Program-made: the position numbers and the translations under genes
Source of the DNA: Eledone cirrhosa
Taxonomy: Eukaryota
Reading direction: 5' to 3'
Length of the DNA: 64,000 nt
Assembly: GCA_964016885.1 (NCBI GenBank)
Contig: OZ024740.1
Location: 76,880,001-76,944,000 of the forward strand
Notes under the pieces: model-generated
The model's input: only the letters and a program-made list of their open reading frames with translations
The model's database searches: none
What the model was told of the DNA's origin: nothing
Shown here: positions 5,831-62,616 of the stretch, piece after piece
Layout: every line of letters starts with the position of its first letter
Numbering within the stretch: the first letter of the stretch is position 1

Positions 5831-5845
5831 TATATATATATATAC

Positions 5846-6158
5846 AATATATTAATAAATGGAAACTATATTTATAAAACCATAATTATTTTATTATATA
5901 TATTTCAAGGGCAAACAACGCAATTTTGGTGCGCTTCCATCAGATAAAATACAAAATATGTTTTATAAATGATGAAAGCGCACCAAATTGCCTTGGTTGA
6001 CCTTGAAATATATATAATACAATAATTATGGTTTTATAAATATAGTTTCCATTTATTAATATATTGAATATTTACTCCACAAATTGTTGAGTGCTTTATA
6101 TCAGTTATAAAACTTTTAAGCTTGTTGAATCCCAACAAATTAAATATAATTTCTGCAT
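5846..6158. mobile_element. Fold-back (inverted) Penelope-like 3'-end remnant
   Basis: 5846-5940 is the reverse complement of about 5972-6066. Same family at 29552-29800, 43581-43730 and 62550-62660. Flanked by (TA)n. Confidence 0.7.
5887..5951 (-). ncRNA. Hammerhead ribozyme motif (core CUGAUGG variant)
   Basis: Minus strand: TATTTTAT CTGATGG AAG...CTT GAAA TATATA TA ATAAAATA. 8-bp stem I and palindromic stem III. Confidence 0.65.

Positions 6159-7267: not shown

Positions 7268-7272
<5 letters not shown>
6185..7272. repeat. Direct (tandem) duplication of about 335 bp; the second copy is interrupted by a SINE
   Basis: 6185-6522 matches 6824-7272 (TTTTAAGCAGACAGTATTAT...GCGATTCTCGCTGAATTTATAT). 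The second copy carries the SINE at 6844-6952. Confidence 0.9.
6844..6952 (+). mobile_element. 5'-truncated Deu/Nin-type SINE
   Basis: TCCCGCCAAGGTTAACTTTGCCTTTCATCCTTACGAGGTCGATAAAATAAAGTACCAG...GTAGAAACAATTAT. The empty site is visible in the paralogous copy near 6200. Confidence 0.85.
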
Positions 7273-7322
<50 letters not shown>

Positions 7323-7325
<3 letters not shown>

Positions 7326-8062
7326 CGATAAATTAATGGAGACATAGACTCTCGCTATTCCCTGTCATTAATGTGCTCAAAGGAGAGGAATCCCGAGCCT
7401 TTTATAATAAAATATGTAGAAAAGATAACACGCCAGAGAGAGAGACAGTGCGCCATCAGTCAAACAGGGAAAAAACACCAGTGTATGGAATCTATAGCCC
7501 TAGGAAGGCAAAGTAGACACACAATAATTAAAAGTATAAATCTAAGTGCAAACACATACCTTGATCACTATCTAACACACACGTACAAATCCAAAAGGAT
7601 CTGTTTCACCAACTAATTTGTTGACAGACATGATTAGCCCATGGTTCATCAGCGTGTGTAAGGCTATACATTTCAGACAACACTAAAAGAATCTAAAGCC
7701 ACACGTGGGAGAGAGAATTCACGGCGTGCCTAGGGGAGTAACCAGTGAACTCTAAGGGACGAGCTGCTAGAAAGGGCAGCCCAAACCACCCAAAGAAGTG
7801 TGCTCAACCAAACAGAGAAAGAGGAGAGACTGTTATAAGGAGCGAAATATTACGATAAATTAACAGAGCCACAGACTCTCGCTATTCCCTGTCATTAATG
7901 TGCTCAAAGGAGAAGGAATCCCGAGTCCTGTTTGACTGATAGCGACTCTCTCTCTCTCTGGTGTGTTATCTTTTCTACATATTGTATTATAAAGGGCTCG
8001 GGATTCCTTCTCCTTTGAGCACATTAATGACAGGGAATAGCGAGCGTCTATGGCTCCGTTAA
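7323..8062 (-). mobile_element. HHR-containing tandem plus inverted module (retrozyme-like / mini-Penelope), unit about 528 bp
   Basis: 7323-7397 is repeated directly at 7851-7927 and followed by an inverted copy (7928-8062). Canonical HHR at 7577-7659. A further partial copy lies at 62330-62470. Confidence 0.7.
7577..7659 (-). ncRNA. Canonical type I hammerhead ribozyme
   Basis: Minus strand: ACACACG CTGATGA ACCA..CTAAT..ATTAG.TGGT GAAA CAGATCC TTTT GGATTTG TA CGTGTGT. 7-bp stem I, intact core, stable stem III, GUA cleavage triplet. Confidence 0.92.
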
Positions 8063-8439
8063 TTAGAAAAGTGAATGATGGAGCGCATCTACCTGAAATA
8101 GTAAAAAACCGTTTTGTATAATGAGCTATACTTGTGCACGCGCGCGCATGTGTGAGTGTGTGTGAGTGTGTGTGTATGTGTTATTATACGTACGAAGCTA
8201 AGAAGATATGTGTGTGTATATATAAGTAAAAGAGTATTGCTCTTTATACAAAACGGTTTCTTTTCTATTTCAGATCGACCCGTTCCATCATTCATTTTCT
8301 AAAAAAAATATATCATACACAAAACGCCAGCAGCAACAGTTTTCCAAGAGATGACAAAATGAATGGACCTGTTATTTTTATCTAAAAACATTTTTTTCAA
8401 ATTCCACCCACCCTTCAATCTTTTTAATTTCTCATTCTT

Positions 8440-8911: not shown

Positions 8912-9437
8912 GAAGAGGAGTGGCTGTGTAGTTGCTAGATAAGGTATGCTTAAAAATAAGAAGAAACCAAGAATGGGAGAAGTTTTCCTCACCAGTTGTC
9001 TGCTGGGGGTCTCAGATATTTCTACGCATTAAAGACAATATATCTATCTCCAGTGCGTTCAATAACTAGGTTAAGTTATTTGGAAAACAAATATAGGATA
9101 ACAGAAAGGAAATGGGAAGAAAAGAGAAAAACAGCGAAAAAAAGCGAAAAAACGGGAAACAACAAATCGAAGAGTGTGAGCAACTCGAAGAGAGAAAGTT
9201 AAAGTCCACGACGATTACAGAACATAAGTTCTAGATTGTGCGGACGAGAAAAAAGACATGCGTGACCTCTCGGATATTTCTACGCATTAAAGACAAGACA
9301 CTCTCAGAGGTCACGCATGTCTTTTTTCTCGTCCGCACAATCTAGAACTTATGTTCTGTAATCGTCGTGGACTTTAATTTTCTCTCTTCGAGTTGCTCAC
9401 ACTCTTTGATTTGTTGTTTCCCGTTTTTTCGCTTTTA
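8905..9437. mobile_element. Direct plus inverted repeat module, Penelope-like remnant
   Basis: CTC(A/G)GATATTTCTACGCATTAAAGACAA occurs at 9011 and 9268. 9135-9270 is inverted at 9305-9437. The left end is related to 19925-20075 and 47850-48055. (TA)n flanks. Confidence 0.6.
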
Positions 9438-9590
9438 TATATATACATATATATATACATATATGTAGGAGGTGAGTTTTATTGTAGTACAATAAAGCAA
9501 TGCAGATATCGGATAAGAAGCACTCTACAGTTTGTGGGACTGGAGTATGCATAATATAAGATCAAAAGATGGTTAAAGGAGTTCCATATA

Positions 9591-9657
9591 TTTTATTATG
9601 CGCATTTCAAAAACAAACATCATCAAACAATAATATTTGTGTTTTCATCAGATAAAA
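9591..9657 (-). ncRNA. Hammerhead ribozyme (mirror copy)
   Basis: Reverse complement of 9770-9836. Confidence 0.75.
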
Positions 9658-9769
9658 CAGGAGAACATGATATGAAGGCTAAAAAACACTTGTTGATAGT
9701 GCAGTTTTATGTTGATTTGAAACTGCACTATCAACAAGTGTTTTTTAGCCTTCATATCATGTTCTCCTG

Positions 9770-9836
9770 TTTTATCTGATGAAAACACAAATATTATTGT
9801 TTGATGATGTTTGTTTTTGAAATGCGCATAATAAAA
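9770..9836 (+). ncRNA. Type I hammerhead ribozyme with palindromic stem III
   Basis: TTTTAT CTGATGA AAAC...GTTTTT GAAA TGCGCA TA ATAAAA. 6-bp stem I and AUA triplet. Confidence 0.75.
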
Positions 9837-9868
9837 TATATGGAACTCCTTTAACCATCTTTTGATCT

Positions 9869-9964
<96 letters not shown>

Positions 9965-16140: not shown

Positions 16141-16183
16141 ATATTGAACTAGTTTCGATGTTATTACATCTCATCAGCAATAT
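16141..16183 (-). ncRNA. Minimal type I hammerhead (GUU triplet)
   Basis: Minus strand: ATATTG CTGATGA GATGT AATA ACATC GAAAC TA GTT CAATAT. Confidence 0.88.
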
Positions 16184-16409
16184 ATAATATATTTAACTTA
16201 ATTGTTTAAGCGTCAGTCATACAAAAGTGAGTTAGAAGCGAAACGAAATTTAATTTCGTTTCGTTATTTGTTTTTATCGTTTCCGCTGAACCGGTGCGTA
16301 CAATGACTCACGTTCTATGCAAATTAGTCTACCCACTACTAATTTTCATAGAAAAAGCATATAACGATATGTGCTTTTACAATTCTCTAGAGAAGCCGGA
16401 AGATGGGTA

Positions 16410-16454
16410 AATATTGCTGATGAGATGTAATAACATCGAAACTAGTCCAATATT
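16410..16454 (+). ncRNA. Minimal type I hammerhead (GUC triplet)
   Basis: AATATTG CTGATGA GATGT AATA ACATC GAAAC TA GTC CAATATT. Perfect stems I and II; palindromic ACTAGT stem III (dimer type). Confidence 0.92.
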
Positions 16455-23959: not shown

Positions 23960-25883
23960 TTTTCTCTTTCTCTTAATTTTGAGTATATTTTTTTGACCGG
24001 CCACCTTCCTGGTGGCAAGGTTGTAAAAGAAAAGAAATTGTCATCCCTTGAATCGCAAGAATGTTTTGCAAATTTTGAAGGTGCCAGCTATCGCAGCCAT
24101 TTGTAGACTATGAATTAGGGAGCTGCGCTTTTTGTCCACAAATCCAAGTTCAGTCATACTTTGGTCCAAGCGGGTTGGTAGCACCAATAATGATGGGTAT
24201 GAAGCTAAAGGTGTATCTTGGATACTGGATTTGTAAACTCCTCATCAATGGTCCGTAGATGTCCTCCTTCTCCTGTATTTTTCTGACAACGTTTACATCA
24301 AGTGGGCAGCTGATCTCCACAACAGAACACGTTTTCAATGTGTGGTCCCAAACTACAATATCAGGCCGGTTGTGCTTTAATTTGGTGGCAGTTTTTATTT
24401 TCAGGTTCCACCAGTATTCCTTAGTGCCATCTGTCTCAATATATTCTTCCTCGTTTGTTGTTAATTTTGTTTTCCGAAGTGCGTTCCAGATGGTTCTAGC
24501 TATCCCATCGTGTCTCATGGGGAGGTAGTAGCGAGATGACATTCTTTCGCAGCTGGCAACAATGTGGCTTACATCCTCGATCTTTGTTTTACATAGCCTA
24601 CATTTATTGTCAGCTGCACAAAATATCTTTTGTGCAGCAGATATTTGGTAGGGAGTTCTTGTTCCTGTATTGCATAGAGATATCCCTCAAGGTGTGATGT
24701 CATAAACTTGTCGGAACTCCATGCCAGGCTTTTTGAGTGGTTTATCCCCTCTATGGTCTGTGTTTTACGCCTCAAGTATCCATGCACAACTTTTTCTGTA
24801 AATTGGTCAATTTTTTTTATCTTGTTTGAACATTGAATAGGATCTTCCGATTTCTCTGGGTGAGAGATTTATATCAGGCTTTATTCCATATCTCTCCTCC
24901 AGATCAGTCGCTATTCTAATGATATTTCTTTTTTCATGGTCATAAACCTGGGCAAGATGGTTGCCAACCTTTTTCCTCTGTTGAAGGTGTTGCTTCAGTG
25001 TCACTATCCGGGTCTCATATGTTGTTAATATTGATTTTAGACCCCGGCCACCTTCCTTGCGTGAGAAGTATAGCCTATCCACATCACCATTGATGTTAAA
25101 GTTCCCAGTAATACTGAGAAGTTTTCGAGTTCTAACATCCATCTCACTTAGTTCTTGCAATGACCAGTTCAGTAGGCCAAATGTTGGCGTTAGAATTGGC
25201 ACAGCATAAGTATTGTGGGCAATGTATTTGTTGTATGCTGACAGTTCTGATGACCATATTTTCTTTACTCTTCTGAGGTATTCAGTTCTGGTTCTCTCCT
25301 TATATATGGGTCCATCATATCTGACATTCTCATCCTGTCCAAGATATCTGTAGTTGTCACCTGACTGCAGAGGTTGTATTGTCAGGCCGTTCATCTCTAG
25401 ATTTCTAGAGGAGGGCACAGCTCTTCCACGTTTTACTGCCAAATATGCACACTTGGACTCACCAAATTTCATTTTGATGTCGGTTGAAAATTGTGTAATG
25501 AGGTCCAATTGTTTCTTGATGTCATTGATATTTGGCCCATACAACTTCAGGTCATCAACAAAGAAAAGATGGGAGATACTTCTGGTCCCACTTCTTTGTC
25601 CACCTTGTTTCCTGAGTAGGTAAGATAGTGGATTCAGTGAGAAAACGAAGAGTAGCACTGACAAGCTATCACCCTGAAAGATGCCCTTCTGGTAATGTAT
25701 CTTATCAGTCTTAACCTGCTCCTTCTCACCCCTAAGGATCAAACTGGTGTACCAGTCCTTGGTCAGGCGTTCAACAGCAGCTACCAATGGTTGTGGGACT
25801 TTAGCTAACTGTAAAGCCTTAACAATCCACCCATGAGGTACACTATCAAATGCTTTTTGATAGTCCAGCCACACGACAGTCAT
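23960..25883 (-). pseudogene. 5'-truncated, frameshifted R4-clade (RLE) non-LTR retrotransposon
   Basis: RT motifs WLDYQKAFDSVPH, GIFQGDSLS and HLFFVDDLKLY. RLE motifs RHD, HNRPDIVV and VVEISCP. Split over ORFs 24807-25883, 24569-24787 and 24150-24542. Confidence 0.92.
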
Positions 25884-25930
25884 ATATACATGTATGTATG
25901 TATGTATGTATGTGTGTGTATATATGTATG

Positions 25931-25969
<39 letters not shown>

Positions 25970-26110
25970 TATTTTTATTTATTTTATTTCTTTTATTTAT
26001 TTATTTATTATTATTTTTTTTTTTTCTATCTCCTCGTGCAATGGCCATACTCGATAACGAGGGGGCAGCCATCATATGTCTATATACCTGTATATATATA
26101 TATATATATG

Positions 26111-26724: not shown

Positions 26725-26802
<78 letters not shown>

Positions 26803-26869
26803 CAAGGTTTAGCAAATAAGAAAATGTTTTAAAATAACTTTTAAAAAATTCACTGTACCTGCTATGGTT

Positions 26870-26955
26870 ACCTTTACCGTACGGTTTCGAGTCTCAAAAA
26901 TAAATGGATAGTCCTTAAAGGCCTCAATTGAAAAGAAAAACTCTCGTCAGAAGGT
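26870..26955 (-). ncRNA. Type I hammerhead (mirror copy)
   Basis: Minus strand: ACCTT CTGACGA GAGT...ACTC GAAA CCGTACGG TA AAGGT. Confidence 0.85.
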
Positions 26956-27274
26956 TCTTTTCACTCGGAGAATATAAAATTCCCGAGTTCGAATTACGAA
27001 CTGGCGCTATTCAAAATTGTTCCCGAGATGAGAATGAATGAAGTAGAAGCAATTCTGTCCAGTGCCGTGTGCAAAGATAGAAGCAGAGAGGTCAATCTAC
27101 TACCACTATAAATAGCAGCAGTCAAAACGACCAAATGTTATCTCGACCAGGGCGAGATTAATAATAATAAAGTATATATCCCTATACGCAAAATACATAT
27201 AGGGACACATGTATTATCCAACCATATTTCCAATGTGTTTCTATGGCAGGTTAATAAATTAACGAGTGAAAAGA

Positions 27275-27360
27275 ACCTTCTGACGAGAGTCTTTCTTTTC
27301 AATGGAGGCCTGTAGGGACTATCCATTTATTTTTGAGACTCGAAACCGTACGGTAAAGGT
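27275..27360 (+). ncRNA. Type I hammerhead ribozyme
   Basis: ACCTT CTGACGA GAGTCT...AGACTC GAAA CCG TA CGG TA AAGGT. All three stems are intact; palindromic ACCGTACGGT; GUA triplet. Confidence 0.92.
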
Positions 27361-27535
27361 AACCATAGCAGGTACAGTGAATTTTTTAAAATTTATTTTA
27401 AAACTGTTTCTTATTTGCTAAACCTAGATTATATATATTCTGGCTCGTTAATTTATTAACCTGCCATAGAACCACATTGGCATATGGTTGGATAATACAT
27501 GTGTCCCTATATGTTTTTTGCATATAGGGATATAT

Positions 27536-27656
<121 letters not shown>

Positions 27657-33229: not shown

Positions 33230-35861
33230 TGCATTTATCTTGCTTTATGTTTATACGAGTTATCACCAAGTCACAACCAGTGACCTCAAGAGACAACAAG
33301 GTCCGCCATGTTCAAGAAAGGACACACATATTCACACATGCATCCTTAGTGTTTAGACTTGTGATGTACTTATATTGACAGGATCTTCCTTAGTATATGG
33401 GCAGTTCCCATTAGTACTATCTTTTGTATTTCTCCTATACGCGGGTTTCCTGGGATTTGCGATAAGTAGTCGTTAGACCCCTTAGGTATCATTCCCAGAG
33501 CGCCTACAACCACTGGTATTGTTTTAGTTCTCAATTTCCACATTTTTCCAATTTCTATCTCCAGGTCCTTATACTTGCTCAATTTTTCAAATGTTTTTAT
33601 AGATACATTCTTGTCTATTGGAATGGACATATCAATTAGCAGGCATACCCTCCTTTGAAAGTCCTTCAATATTATATCAGGTCTATTTGCATCTATTTTT
33701 CGGTCTGTTTGGATGCTAAAGTTCCACAAGATTGAGATGTGATCTTTTTCAAATATGGGAGGTGGTTGATGCTCCCACCAATTCTTTTGATGGGGCAGGT
33801 CAAAATGCTTACACATTATCCAATGTATGTATTGTGCAGCTCTGTCATGCCTGTTTAGGTATTCGGTTGGAGCTATAGGACTGCACATTGAAATTATATG
33901 GTCAATGGTCTCTGGTTGTTTTTTGCATACACGGCATAATGGGCTGCACCCATTTTTTATTATGTTGGCTTGGTAATTTTTTGTTGGCAGACACTGATCT
34001 TGTGCGGATATAATCAGTCCTTCAGTCTCCGATTTCAGTCCAGAGGATGCCAACCACTGATGGGTTAAAGTTTTGTCAACATCAGGATTGTTAGCTCGCT
34101 CTGGGTATTTTCCATACAGAGGCTTTTCTTGCCATTTCTTAGCCAGTTTCTGTAGCAGTTCTTTCTTTGCAGTTACTTTTACCTGCTTTGCTTTTTCTGT
34201 GTTTTCCATTTCAGCAGTAAATGGGACTTCTGAAATTTGTAGTCCATTACTGTATCTTTGTGCATCTCTTGTAATGGAATATGATCTTTTGGTGCTTTCG
34301 TATTTCAAAACGAGTTTGATCATCCAATCATGTGATTCCCTTAGATATGTGGATAATCCAATTGTTGCAGTTTTCAACGCAATGTCTAACTGGATTAACC
34401 CACGTCCTCCTTCTTTCCTAGGGAGATATATTCTATCTATGTCTGCCTTAGGGTGATGCATTCTGTGCATGGTTAAGAATTTTCGGATTTTTGTATCGAG
34501 CCTACGGATCTCTGTGCTTGACCAGTTGATGACATTGTAACTGTAGGTTACTACTGGTATGGCAAGCGTGTTTATGGCATCGATCCTATTCCTTGCATTC
34601 AATTCCGTTCTTAAGATTGCTCTGACTCTGCGGTAACATTCTTTCCTTATCCTTTCCCTCATTGTCGAGTGCTTGATTCCGTCTCCTTCACAAACACCTA
34701 GATATTTGTAAGTTTGTTCTTGATCAAGCTCTCTTATCACGTTCCCCCGATCAAGATTAATGTCTGAACTCTTCAGCAGCTTTCCTCTGGTGAACGTTGC
34801 TTTGGCGCATTTATCCAGTCCAAACTCCATTTTAATGTCATCACTGAACTGCTTCACAGTGGATAATAGCCCTTGCAATTGTTCATCATTTTTTGCAAAT
34901 AGTTTCAGGTCATCCATGTAGAACAGGTGATTAATGGTTTTGTCATAGACTCTATATCCATGTTTTGTTTCATTGAGCATTTTACTTAATGGTATAAGTG
35001 TGATGCAGAATAAAAGCGGTGATAAAGAGTCACCCTGAAAAATTCCACAATTAATGTTAACTTCTCCAGCTTCCAGTGATTTTGTTTCACTATTCAAAAG
35101 GAGTGTCGTTCTCCATGTCCTCATACTGAATGACAAAAACCTCCTGATAACGGGGGATATTTTGAAAATCTCTAAACATTTTTCAATCCAACTGTGTGGC
35201 AAACTATCAAATGCTTTTTTATAATCTATCCAAGCAATCGATAGATTTTTGTGTCTATTATGACAATCTTCCAGTATCATTTTGTTAACCAGAAGCTGAT
35301 CCTTACAGCCATATGAGCCTCGTTTACACCCTTTCTTCTCAATGGGAAATAGGTCATTTGTTATCAGGTGGTCATATGTGTATTCAGTTAGAACTGATGT
35401 TAAAATTTTATACATTGTGGTCAAGCAGGTTATCGGTCTGTAATTTTTGGGATTGTTTGTCTCATCATTCTTCGGTAGCAGGAATGTAATGCCGTTAACT
35501 AGCCATGATGGTATCTTTTCTGGCTCCTTAACTATTTCATTGTAAAGTTGGGCTAACAGCTCATGAGACTCTGTGAAGGCATTTATCCAAAAGTTTTGTA
35601 TTTTGTCTTTTCCTGGGGATTTCCATTTGCTGGTTTTTCTTAGAGCCAAGCGCAGCTGTTCAACTGTTATATTTTCCCATGTTTGTTCTTCAAGGTGAGC
35701 TGTTTCTTTCATTTGTCTGTCTATCCATGGGGCATGTATGTTATGAACTTTTTCTTCGGCCCAGATCTTTTCCCAGAATTCTTGCACTTCCTCCTTGGGT
35801 GGTATTGATTTAGCAGTTATTGTTGACTTACCAATTTTTCTGTAGAAGTTTCTTCTTCTTC

Positions 35862-35862
<1 letters not shown>
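33229..35862 (-). mobile_element. Dong-like (R4 clade) non-LTR retrotransposon, 5'-truncated, inserted in (TAA)n
   Basis: (TAT)n tracts at 33186-33229 and 35863-35938 flank an RT-CCHC-RLE ORF. TAA-repeat targeting is the known Dong behaviour. Confidence 0.92.
33370..35853 (-). CDS. Reverse transcriptase - CCHC - restriction-like endonuclease polyprotein (N-truncated, uninterrupted 828 codons)
   Basis: SPGKD, NYRPITCL, WIDYKKAFDS, GIFQGDSLSPLLF, HLFYMDD, CRVC..H..C, RHD, NRPDIILKD, IDMSIP, KLSKY. The listed Met/poly-Ile start is a microsatellite artefact. Confidence 0.93.
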   Translation of the reverse strand, partial: RNFYRKIGKSTITAKSIPPKEEVQEFWEKIWAEEKVHNIHAPWIDRQMKETAHLEEQTWENITVEQLRLALRKTSKWKSPGKDKIQNFWINAFTESHELLAQLYNEIVKEPEKIPSWLVNGITFLLPKNDETNNPKNYRPITCLTTMYKILTSVLTEYTYDHLITNDLFPIEKKGCKRGSYGCKDQLLVNKMILEDCHNRHKNLSIAWIDYKKAFDSLPHSWIEKCLEIFKISPVIRRFLSFSMRTWRTTLLLNSETKSLEAGEVNINCGIFQGDSLSPLLFCITLIPLSKMLNETKHGYRVYDKTINHLFYMDDLKLFAKNDEQLQGLLSTVKQFSDDIKMEFGLDKCAKATFTRGKLLKSSDINLDRGNVIRELDQEQTYKYLGVCEGDGIKHSTMRERIRKECYRRVRAILRTELNARNRIDAINTLAIPVVTYSYNVINWSSTEIRRLDTKIRKFLTMHRMHHPKADIDRIYLPRKEGGRGLIQLDIALKTATIGLSTYLRESHDWMIKLVLKYESTKRSYSITRDAQRYSNGLQISEVPFTAEMENTEKAKQVKVTAKKELLQKLAKKWQEKPLYGKYPERANNPDVDKTLTHQWLASSGLKSETEGLIISAQDQCLPTKNYQANIIKNGCSPLCRVCKKQPETIDHIISMCSPIAPTEYLNRHDRAAQYIHWIMCKHFDLPHQKNWWEHQPPPIFEKDHISILWNFSIQTDRKIDANRPDIILKDFQRRVCLLIDMSIPIDKNVSIKTFEKLSKYKDLEIEIGKMWKLRTKTIPVVVGALGMIPKGSNDYLSQIPGNPRIGEIQKIVLMGTAHILRKILSI

Positions 35863-35938
<76 letters not shown>

Positions 35939-36015
35939 GTTCTTTGAGTCTCAGTCATTAATGTTAGTTAACTGGAAAGTTTGTTGAAATCAATATCAAG
36001 CCACTAACTGCAGCC

Positions 36016-39000
36016 TCAGATATTTAGGACGTATCGGAGAGTTCTTGCTGTTCCCAGCAAGCATGCCTTTTGAAGCGTTCCAAAAAGCGTGAAGGGGCCA
36101 ATTTTCTTTAACCATCCCTGGAAACTTTTTGAGATAGTCCCTAGTGCGCCTATGACAATCGGGATCACTTTGACTTCATGGCAGTTCCAAATCCTTTTTA
36201 CCTCCCACTTTAAGTCCTGGTATCGGTTAATTTTCTCCCTCTCCTTCTCTTGCACTCTCGTGTCGAATGGGCAGGTCACAACCACAATCAGGCACGATCT
36301 TTTTTCTTTGTCCAAAACCACCAGGTGAGGTCTATTGTGTTCCAGTTTCTTGTCCGTCTGTATCCTAAAATCCCACAACACCTTCACCTGATCGTTTTCT
36401 ATCACCGACTCTAGCTTATGCTCATACCACTTCTCAGAATGTGGTAAATTGTTTACTTTGCATAGGCGCCAGTGGATCACTCTGCCCATCACATCATGTC
36501 TCCAGCACTTATAGTGAGTCTGGGCTAGGTGTTTACACTCGGATACAATGTGAGCCACAGTCTCCTCTCTCTCTCCACAGATCCTGCACAGTGGGCTAGC
36601 CTCCTCCTTGTAAATGTGGTGTTTCAACCACTTCGTTTTGAGGGCCTGCTCCTGCGCAGCCATTAACATTCCTTCTGTAGCCTTTTTAAGGTCTCCTCTT
36701 TTCAACCAGTTCCATGTCTGTGGATCTCTAAATTCAGTTCTCTCAAAGAAGGTACTATGAAGGGATTTTTCCTGAAGGCTGCTCTTTCTCCTTGATGTTA
36801 TTTCCTCCTTAGACATCCCCTGGCCTATTGTACCCTCCTTCAGTACAGTTCTGAGCATTGGCTCCTTACTATCAGTCACGTATTTGTGTAGGTTGTTTTT
36901 CTCCATCTGAACACAGTCCTCTATGCTGATAAGACCTCTTCCACCCTCAGATCTCCTTGAGTAGAGTCTATCGACATCACTCCTCTTGTGGAACATGTTG
37001 TAGATAGTCAATAGCTTCCTAGTCTTCCTATCCATTTCTTTTTGTTCAGTAACATTCCATCTCAGAATTCCCGCACTGTACCTAATAATAGACACAGCTC
37101 GGGAATTTACTGCACTTATGGCATTCCTACTGTTCAGATGTGACTTTAATACGCTCCTTACTCTCCGAATGTATTCAGATCTTATCAATTCCTTCATTTT
37201 TTTGTTCTTGATGTCATCAGCCTCCAGAACGCCCAAATACTTGTATCCTTCCTCAGAGTCAATTTCCTTTATCATCTCACCTGTTGGTATCTGGATTTCG
37301 TTACTTCTGCTCAACTTACCCCTCCTCATCACAATGACTCCACACTTACTAATACCAAATTGCATACATATATCATTGCTGAAAATACGGACAGTGTCAA
37401 CAAGCACATCCAACTCCTTCTCACTCTTCCCGAAGAGCTTAAGATCGTCCATGAAGAGGAGGTGATTGATGGTAAGCCCTCCCTTTCCCAACCTGTATCC
37501 TGCAAGGACAAACAACAGAGGGGACAGACTATCTCCCTGGAAGATACCTCTCTTGATCTTCACGCTTACCAAGGATTCTCCAGTTGATGTTAACTCTGTT
37601 TCCGAGGACTTCATACTTTTGCCCAACAACTGTCTGATGTTATCTGCCACCTTGAAGATCTCCAGGCTTTTGGTGATCCAAGAATGAGGCACCATGTCAA
37701 ATGCCTTTTTGTAGTCTATCCATCCTATGGCAAGACCAGTGTGTCTCCTCTTGCAATTCCTCATTACCATCTTATCAATAAGTAACTGGTCCTTTGTACC
37801 ACGTGATTTCTTTCGGCATCCTTTCTGTTCGTCCGGTAACAAGTTGTTTGTGTGGAGGTGATGGTAGATTTCCTCAGACATAATGCTTGTCAACAGTTTC
37901 CTCATTACGGACAGACATATGATAGGTCTATAGTTGGTAACATCATTACCCTTGATTCGGTCTTTCATTATCAGAACTGTAGTACCTTTTGTCAACCACT
38001 CTGGTACCTCACCTGACATCAAGCAGTCATTGAACATGGTTGTCAGTTTCGGGTGGAGGGATGTTATATTTTTAATCCAATACCCCTGCACACCATCTGG
38101 GCCTGGTGATTTCCAGTTAGTTAGTTTTTTGGCCTGCCCCTTAAGAGTTTCAACTGTGATACTCAAATCAGTTTGTTGGTGTGCCTGTTCACTGATCTCC
38201 TTCTGTACTGTCTCAATCCACACTGCCTGGTCATTATGTTTAACATCCTGCTCCCATATTCCTCTCCAGAATGTTTTAGTTTGTTCCGCCTCAGGGATCA
38301 AGTCGTTGCCTCTTTCTTTCCCTTCAAGCTGTCCAAACAACATCTTCTGATTGTTGTCGAACATGCGGTTCTGTCTATACTGACTGACTCTGTTCTCGTA
38401 TCGCCTGATTTTTGCACTCTTTGCTAGAATGCGTTGCTTCAGTTCCTCTATGATAATATTTAGCTTTTTCCTCCTAGTTTTGTACTTTATTTCCAGTCTA
38501 TTTTTAGTGTCTATGTTTTTTAGTGTCCCATTCAGTAGGGACTCAAGCTTTCCAATGTCATTTCTCATTTCCCTGATTTGACCACTCAGTCGTTTCTTCT
38601 ACCAAGGCTCTGCTCTTTCTTGTCTGTTTTTTCCTCTCGCTTTTATACCAAGTAGTTTCCTCACCGTATTTGCTGTTGCTTTGAGGATATTGTTGCACTG
38701 GTGAAGGCTCCTCGCATCAAGGTATGGGATGACTTTGTTTACGTTAGCTGTTGTTTCTTTTAACTTGTTCCTATCTACAAATCTTAGGTTCATAGGTCTC
38801 CCACTATCATTGTTCAATTCATCTACCACTAAGTTTAGGATATCAACCAAATCTTGTCCTAGCCCGTCAGCACTCATCTCCTCAGTGGCCGTATCTCTGT
38901 TCCAGGTACTATTTATCTCAGCATTCAGATCATTGTCTGCTTCGGGTGGTTCCTCCGTTCTCTCGACCTCTTCACCTTCATTTCCCACTGGCTCGTTTGC

Positions 39001-62040: not shown

Positions 62041-62550
62041 TAGTTATCAGAGGAATTGAACGAGACACAATGTATGATGAGGTCAGTTCTTTGAATTACA
62101 TGTACAACTCAATTTTACCAGCTGACTGTACTGAAGCAAAGTTAAATAAATTGTCTTGCTCAAGGACACAACACAGAGCCCAGTCCAGGAATCAAACTCA
62201 TCTGTTGTGGTTTAACTTGGTGGTGGTTTGTATTGTTAGGTTCTTCAGCCATTAGTTTCAACATATTCATAAGTAGTTGTCCATATATTTGTAGTGCTTT
62301 CCAAATTGTTCAGACTAACACATCACGATACATTAACGGAGCCATAGACTCTCGTTTATTGTGTGTCTACTTTGCCTTCCATGGGCTATAGATTCCATAC
62401 ACTGGTGGTTTGTCCCTGTTTGACTGATGGCGCACTATCTCTCTTTCTGGTGTGTTATCTTTTCTACATATCTACCAAATCAACTTTTTAAATGGAAGTT
62501 GAAGTTGTAAGGTATGTCAAATCTATCTATTTATATGACTGTTTATATTG

Positions 62551-62616
62551 TATTTTGTCTGATGAAGGCATACCATATTTTTAATATGATATCCCTGAAA
62601 TATATATAATGAAATA
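62551..62616 (+). ncRNA. Type I hammerhead motif
   Basis: TATTTTGT CTGATGA AGG...CCT GAAA TATATA TA ATGAAATA. 8-bp stem I with two G-U pairs. Confidence 0.72.

Follow-up and report, generated by a model that had tools for sequence, protein, structure and literature searches.

Animal retrozymes have already been described as non-autonomous derivatives of PLEs (PMC7229834, Cervera and de la Pena 2020; bioRxiv 10.64898/2026.07.22.740005, Li, Clavereau and Pollet 2026). Both papers propose mobilisation by PLEs and a circular intermediate, and mobilisation by PLEs has so far been argued from co-occurrence and pLTR trees. Among the traits of PLEs are partial tandem repeats, an inverted copy with 5' truncation, a tail confined to one end and a bias towards microsatellites, and the role of the hammerhead in them is called unclear (PMC8557442, Craig et al. 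2021). Work in vitro has shown that RT starts at two internal sites of a PLE and that the tail corresponds to the sequence between them; the PLE also cleaves and extends both strands of the target (PMC11167929, Frangieh et al. 2024).

The locus analyzed here lies in a window of 64,000 nucleotides from Eledone cirrhosa (the window being the whole stretch of DNA that was analyzed). Like the animal non-LTR retrozymes, the repeat found in it is non-coding, has a GC content below 50%, carries a type I hammerhead with a stable stem III, occurs as monomers to multimers and coexists with PLEs. Its unit is about 540 bp long, as compared with 150-450 bp (PMC7229834) and 51-972 bp (bioRxiv 10.64898/2026.07.22.740005). 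In contrast to the animal non-LTR retrozymes described, most copies here are dispersed insertions of 0.4-1.6 units. In addition, no sister pLTR was found here, whereas such links were found in Xenopus (bioRxiv 10.64898/2026.07.22.740005), and RNA circles, which are predicted for the present family, were shown for those animal retrozymes. RNA-level features aside, the family belongs by its sequence characters to the animal non-LTR retrozymes (non-autonomous PLEs), as a new member. It appears to be an undescribed family of a kind already known: no description of it was found in the literature searched, and an earlier listing in Repbase, Dfam or the supplement of PMC7229834 is possible.

A description of the family alone would be routine; the added value is in the mechanistic footprint. 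The tail, inverted arm, TA target and reciprocal start sites are traces left directly by PLE enzymes on an element of the retrozyme type, and the family provides a small substrate, its start sites mapped, on which a circular template may be tested against a linear one. The reading that we favour, with a probability of about 0.6, is that this dispersed non-coding hammerhead repeat is mobilised by the RT/GIY-YIG protein of a PLE from a circular RNA monomer.

The hammerhead motif, the window copy and the repeat family

A type I hammerhead ribozyme motif, recognised by its core, three stems, fold and family conservation, is located on the minus strand at 7659-7577. Stem I is formed by pairing of 7659-7653 with 7583-7577 and has 7 bp (8 counting a U-G pair). 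The core CUGAUGA occupies 7652-7646, stem II consists of 4 bp plus an extension (a long loop) and is followed by GAAA, and stem III has 7 bp including one G-U pair, closed by a UUUU loop. The GUA lies at 7586-7584 and the predicted cut falls between 7584 and 7583, which is between q267 and q268 in a numbering that follows the ribozyme strand (q1 = 7850, q528 = 7323). The minimum-energy fold of the 96-nt region is the hammerhead three-way junction (-30.9 kcal/mol, z -3.5), and 0/200 shuffles were as good. A strict hammerhead descriptor gave one match in the window and none in each of 60 block-shuffled windows, and a loose descriptor gave 8 matches in the window and none in the 60 shuffles. Descriptor and fold thus bear out the earlier note on this DNA, which had described a minus-strand hammerhead with an intact core, a 7-bp stem I and a stable stem III with a UUUU loop. 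In an Rfam search the hammerhead family was matched neither at gathering thresholds nor up to E 10, the top match being a microRNA model on the fold-back, under its cut-off. Therefore, the motif call rests on descriptor, fold and conservation.

In the following, "direct arm" refers to ribozyme-sense sequence and "inverted arm" to an opposite-sense piece at the 5' side of the direct arm. Along the minus strand, the locus is composed of an inverted arm (q383-520), a partial copy (q454-528), the full unit (q1-528) and a (TA)26 run. The full unit, at 7323-7850 of the minus strand, is without 11 nt that most relatives have, and its closest full-length relative is 91% identical. A unit of about 528 bp with a repeated start at 7851 had been proposed; the repeat is present, but the start recurs at 7850 and the period is 527 (about 537-543 in relatives). 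The upstream partial copy (about q454-528, 7850-7925, minus strand) is arranged head-to-tail with the unit and is 93% identical to the unit end. The fold-back reported behind the repeated start is the inverted arm, which extends over 7927-8064 on the plus strand with 93% identity; its outer end is short of a natural end site and abuts another fold-back. The (TA)26 run at 7271-7323 forms the 3' flank and is the putative target. The further fragment that the earlier note had placed elsewhere in the window was also found, as a second small fold-back copy matching the family in sequence (62325-62471, plus strand), in which inverted q497-526 is joined to q324-439. The absence of protein homology was upheld as well, since a 106-aa stop-to-stop frame at 7860-8180 gave no Pfam match and nine PLE ORFs gave no tblastn match to the window locus. 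With one ribozyme in 1.14 units, the window copy is not itself a tandem array; it is an old one-ribozyme daughter which by itself could not release a monomer.

The assembly searched comprises 3.0 Gb in 1,796 contigs. A genome search with the unit yielded 3,015 candidates, of which 40 were scored, and the family is dispersed over many chromosomes. For the 3' ribozyme half, a 28-letter pattern had 587 exact matches, while its reversed control had 0. All but one of the near-full segments (107/108) fall into three subfamilies, of 53, 44 and 10 segments. Segments are about 5% away from the majority of their own subfamily, which suggests a moderately old family. The units are 527-543 bp long, have a GC content of 0.40-0.42 and are non-coding (no match to Pfam or to PLE ORFs). 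Two sets of loci were used. The enriched set contains 100 distinct loci chosen by similarity, so that long copies are over-represented, and its end tables cover 97 loci, the rearranged L054, L059 and L078 being left out. The unselected set contains 38 further loci, taken in list order from the search with the 28-letter pattern and mostly skipping loci that earlier searches had listed; two of the 38 look like duplicates of one another. Direct lengths in the unselected set range from 0.41 to 1.59 units. LTR architecture was seen in none of the mapped loci, and neither a tRNA gene nor a SINE head was seen in the 4 loci examined for them. Sequencing runs X1 and X2 (kind unrecorded, contigs) cover the unit densely and are uninformative on expression.

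Insertion ends and the PLEs of this genome

In the enriched set, direct arms end at q526 in 51/97 loci and at q448 in 40/97. These two sites lie 78 nt apart, both have AT microhomology to the TA target, and TA repeats follow the 3' end of the direct arm in 127/138 loci; the 5' ends are scattered over the whole unit. On the minus strand of the window, the distal site (q526-528) corresponds to 7323-7327 and the proximal site (q448), at which the window copy does not end, to 7400-7406. Both are putative starts of reverse transcription, and the stretch between them, the 78-nt tail, occupies 7325-7402. Inverted arms were found in 61/97 enriched and 22/38 unselected loci. Where both ends could be classified, the two arms ended at opposite sites in 56/56 enriched loci (30 as 526/448, 26 as 448/526, none alike) and in 14/17 unselected loci; one of the 3 that were alike runs past the site and was judged by eye. 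In the pooled sets, the tail is thus present at one end only in 70/73 loci, and this reciprocal use of the sites has a Fisher p of 1.5e-17 pooled and of 0.009 for the unselected set alone. The window copy is uninformative in this respect, because its inverted arm reaches only to q520, where it abuts another fold-back. Partial tandems with 5' truncation are also present in the family. Target-site duplications are masked by the (TA)n flanks; in one locus (L224) the copy is flanked on either side by a repeat of about 35 bp, which resembles a long target-site duplication.

One possibility is that the unit is a minisatellite spread by duplication at the DNA level, its arms being homogenised by gene conversion. 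Some copies were indeed duplicated with their flanks: at L211 (G000:C2:292567500-292577000) a whole insertion and its TA-rich flanks are present three times at a spacing of about 2 kb, and L249/L250 is another case. The longest array also has internal substructure. However, the dispersed copies lie on many chromosomes between unrelated flanks; their 3' ends fall at two fixed positions, their 5' ends are ragged and their tails reciprocal. This end pattern largely refutes a minisatellite, an explanation that we hold to be very improbable. Tail, inverted arm and TA target make up a very specific footprint, and it is from this footprint that we infer mobilisation by PLEs. The unit is very probably a non-autonomous PLE passenger mobilised in trans, and the same signature speaks for the earlier suggestion of a non-coding element moved by PLE proteins.

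The ends may be compared with those of two described systems. Chlamys/MRC1 of Chlamydomonas (PMC8557442) likewise forms partial tandems and head-to-tail multicopies, has an inverted copy with 5' truncation and a one-sided tail, and targets microsatellites. Unlike Chlamys, which is mostly without a hammerhead, the family described here has a full one, and its tail is 78 nt long as against 30-40 nt in non-autonomous PLEs such as Chlamys. As in the Poseidon PLE PAc of the green anole (PMC11167929), two internal sites, which would be RT start sites here, define the tail and lie downstream of the hammerhead. Both target strands are cleaved and extended at AT-rich DNA by PAc, and the ends suggest the same for the present family. 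PAc is autonomous, its ribozyme is protein-dependent and its priming proceeds without homology, whereas here AT microhomology to (TA)n and reciprocal use of the sites were observed. No analysis of tail, inverted arm and two start sites such as the present one was seen in the portions consulted of PMC7229834 and bioRxiv 10.64898/2026.07.22.740005.

The genome contains 10,597 GIY-YIG candidates, and RT and GIY-YIG domains were found together in three ORFs. The PLE families of L151, L154/L164 and L157 resemble the unit in their (TA)n flanks, inverted arms and, for L164, reciprocal tail; unlike the unit, they encode RT and GIY-YIG and have unrelated terminal sequences. They possess a CxxC linker as described for Neptune (PMC8557442). 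L164 (G000:C1:97885800-97892000) is a PLE fold-back with two ORF-bearing arms, a tail on one arm and TA at both flanks, and a reciprocal tail with TA flanks was also observed in 5/5 short fold-backs of the 3' end of the L154/L164 family. In 50 GIY-YIG loci, no sequence-related autonomous partner of the unit was detected by blastn, nhmmer profile or covariance model; one separate small unit insertion in L125 and one 19-nt motif match were all that this search returned. Similarity of the 3' end to an autonomous family, which is usual though not universal for non-autonomous PLEs, was likewise not detected in these 50 loci.

It might be argued that an autonomous PLE has the unit as its pseudo-LTR, the copies being 5'-truncated insertions of this PLE. 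The ends and targets are the same as those of PLEs, and 3/138 loci (L088, L223 and L225) are joined directly to PLE DNA at their 5' side. Of the several thousand copies and the 10,597 GIY-YIG candidates, the sample covers 138 and 50, respectively. However, where copies extend upstream of q1, they always enter the unit's own end and no other sequence, and no shared ORF was found upstream of the unit in the 138 loci. The three joins involve three different PLE families and different unit positions (q84, q346 and about q150), and in 41/138 loci the 5' side is joined to sequence other than TA, in several cases an unrelated repeat. In addition, the terminal regions inspected in the L151, L154/L164 and L157 families carry other, degenerate or short hammerhead-like cores. 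PLE ORF matches near copies are mostly set apart by TA runs or other sequence. We give a pseudo-LTR hardly any weight; in the 138 loci, no copy serves as the terminal repeat of an ORF, so that the copies do not show the arrangement (all pLTRs on RT/GIY-YIG ORFs) that the earlier note had set against its own proposal.

One of the three joins deserves a separate description. L225 (G000:C1:97044499-97045009) consists of TA, a 255-nt stretch that is the natural 3' end of L154/L164 PLEs in inverted orientation, the unit and TA again. The junction is direct, through 3-4 shared bases, and the PLE 3' end sits in the position of an inverted arm. This structure matches the product expected of priming on two different RNAs and is a possible pointer to the L154/L164 family as the partner enzyme. 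It is only a lead, because the ends of both arms are at distal sites and the L225 chimera, used as query, brought up no further unit-PLE chimera among the 40 candidates scored out of 2,198.

Tandem units, ribozyme conservation and the template of insertion

The earlier note had proposed a BLAST search of the unit against the genome for head-to-tail arrays. Arrays with at least two ribozymes do exist, but most copies are of the dispersed, short type. Two or more direct segments spanning the ribozyme were found in 25/97 enriched loci and in 1/38 unselected loci, and the latter figure indicates that sources capable of releasing a monomer are rare but present. Arrays of at least 3 units were not found with window-type queries and surfaced only with a query from a sister subfamily. 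The longest, L201 (G000:C4:220353396-220357248), has at least 6.2 units (up to about 7) and crosses an assembly gap; some of its variants alternate or are common to non-adjacent units, which suggests later local duplication. Arrays and short copies have the same ends and the same flanks, as expected of insertion as multimers. A longer parent element had been considered for the 2-kb spacing on C2 and was rejected in favour of local triplication with flanks.

The ribozyme core is intact in 89/108 segments, its sole variable base being N7 (U 84, G 18, A 4, C 2). Within core, stem I and stem III, 0/40 positions differ between subfamily majorities, as compared with 33/346 elsewhere (p 0.023), and stems I and III are paired at 95-97%. 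Covariation of the ribozyme base pairs was not above that of shuffles (2/19 pairs; 77/500 shuffles as high). At the base of stem II, 71/108 segments have an A-C mismatch and 30/108 have A-U, as does the window copy. This A-C mismatch makes the term "monomer-competent", used in the earlier note, uncertain; activity as a monomer is plausible. For frog retrozymes, cleavage was obtained in only 1/9 predicted dimers (bioRxiv 10.64898/2026.07.22.740005). Two cut-to-cut monomers, obtained from 6 loci tried, were folded as circles, and these predicted circles had z-scores of -3.1 and -3.2 against 25 shuffles each.

The arms of individual insertions were compared at subfamily-diagnostic sites. Upstream partials mismatched in 100/743 cases within loci against 49% between loci, and inverted arms in 64/594 cases against 45%. 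Rare alleles were common to sibling units in 88/470 cases where 6.4 were expected, and in 26/198 where 2.6 were expected. The sequence evidence thus points to one monomer as the origin of all arms of an insertion. The three distances between arms were equal (212/221/193 of 3,339 sites in 24 loci), and differences between upstream and downstream units had no strong direction, the largest skews being 4:0 and 6:1. Nearly all segments that cross the predicted cut site show no scar there, nor do 5' ends accumulate at this position: of 90 direct 5' ends, 3 fall within 3 nt, as against about 1.4 expected. Equal, star-like divergence of the arms, shared rare alleles and the absence of a 5' pile-up fit rolling-circle copying of one monomer. 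Counting against this, though with weak resolution, the nearest neighbour is the copy's own downstream unit in only 13/44 upstream partials, and gene conversion between neighbouring arms could be another source of the shared alleles. In a tree of units, the 448-ended units grouped together, probably as a length artefact, and the tree was not counted as evidence.

Two other templates have to be considered. If transcripts of the rare arrays were left uncut and the non-autonomous passenger were copied from such a linear multimer, the ribozyme would be a bystander or act later. Arrays of 3-7 units exist from which such RNA might come, uncut RNA would also account for read-through of the cut site, and the base of stem II is weakened in most copies. 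Moreover, with the anole PLE, ribozyme cleavage was dispensable in vitro and unprocessed RNA was the main substrate (PMC11167929). However, differences specific to a position in the array are not inherited, the three arms are equally distant, and the ribozyme is conserved across subfamilies. A linear template with internal priming and 5' truncation would also give daughters shorter than their source, so that arrays would not be regenerated; tandems need regeneration, and a circle is the simplest way to provide it. A linear multimer is an unlikely template, though not a negligible one. Less probable again is that the ribozyme cuts out linear monomers and that the PLE RT, on reaching the 5' end of one monomer, makes a precise jump to the 3' end of that monomer or of a second one, with no covalent circle involved. 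Such jumping would account for conservation of the ribozyme and for regeneration of tandems, and two copies (L042 and L104) start at the cut site, within one base of microhomology. Against it stand the unscarred junction, the lack of an excess of 5' ends at the cut and the rare alleles common to sibling units, which favour one molecule.

We return to the circular monomer, for which the following series of steps may be proposed. Transcription of the rare two-ribozyme loci, followed by cuts at both GUA sites, would free a monomer of about 540 nt, and a host ligase would close the circle. The PLE protein might then nick a (TA)n run and prime cDNA inside the RNA at one of the two AT-rich sites 78 nt apart. 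Strands primed at opposite sites would produce one direct and one inverted arm, only one of which carries the tail; the ends are those observed, and the enzymology is presumed. Reverse transcription would follow the circle, cross the ligated cut site and terminate at random, usually after 0.4-1.6 and sometimes after 2-7 units, and the multi-unit products would regenerate two-ribozyme sources. More tentatively, and with odds somewhat against it, the insertions may be genomic fossils of a Penelope intermediate in which a dimeric PLE protein uses two internal sites while rolling round one ribozyme-made RNA circle. If this were true, a single mechanism would account for four features of PLEs in general (tail, inverted arm, partial tandems and hammerhead), and L225 would identify L154/L164 as the family that supplies the enzyme, which would give a minimal 540-nt substrate together with its partner.

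Other features of the window

Besides the unit, the window contains RT sequences and further hammerhead motifs. A pair of neighbouring open frames (865 and 860 aa), both with a reverse transcriptase domain, lies on the minus strand at 33370-38598, and an RT remnant lies at 24807-26000; neither showed a GIY-YIG match or a link to the unit. A fold-back at 9546-9881, unrelated to the unit in sequence, has a hammerhead motif in each arm and adjoins (TA)n, and a near-identical copy of its motif is present in the flank of the PLE locus L163. At 26733-27540, a TA-flanked and ORF-less inverted structure carries two copies of another hammerhead with a long stem II and a palindromic stem III; it is possibly a second family of the same kind as the unit. 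Hammerhead motifs with a short stem III were also noted at 16147-16447 and 62559-62608. Fold-back insertions without an intact ribozyme core occur at 5837-6074, 8066-8300 and 9140-9436, and the second of these is the one that abuts the inverted arm of the unit.
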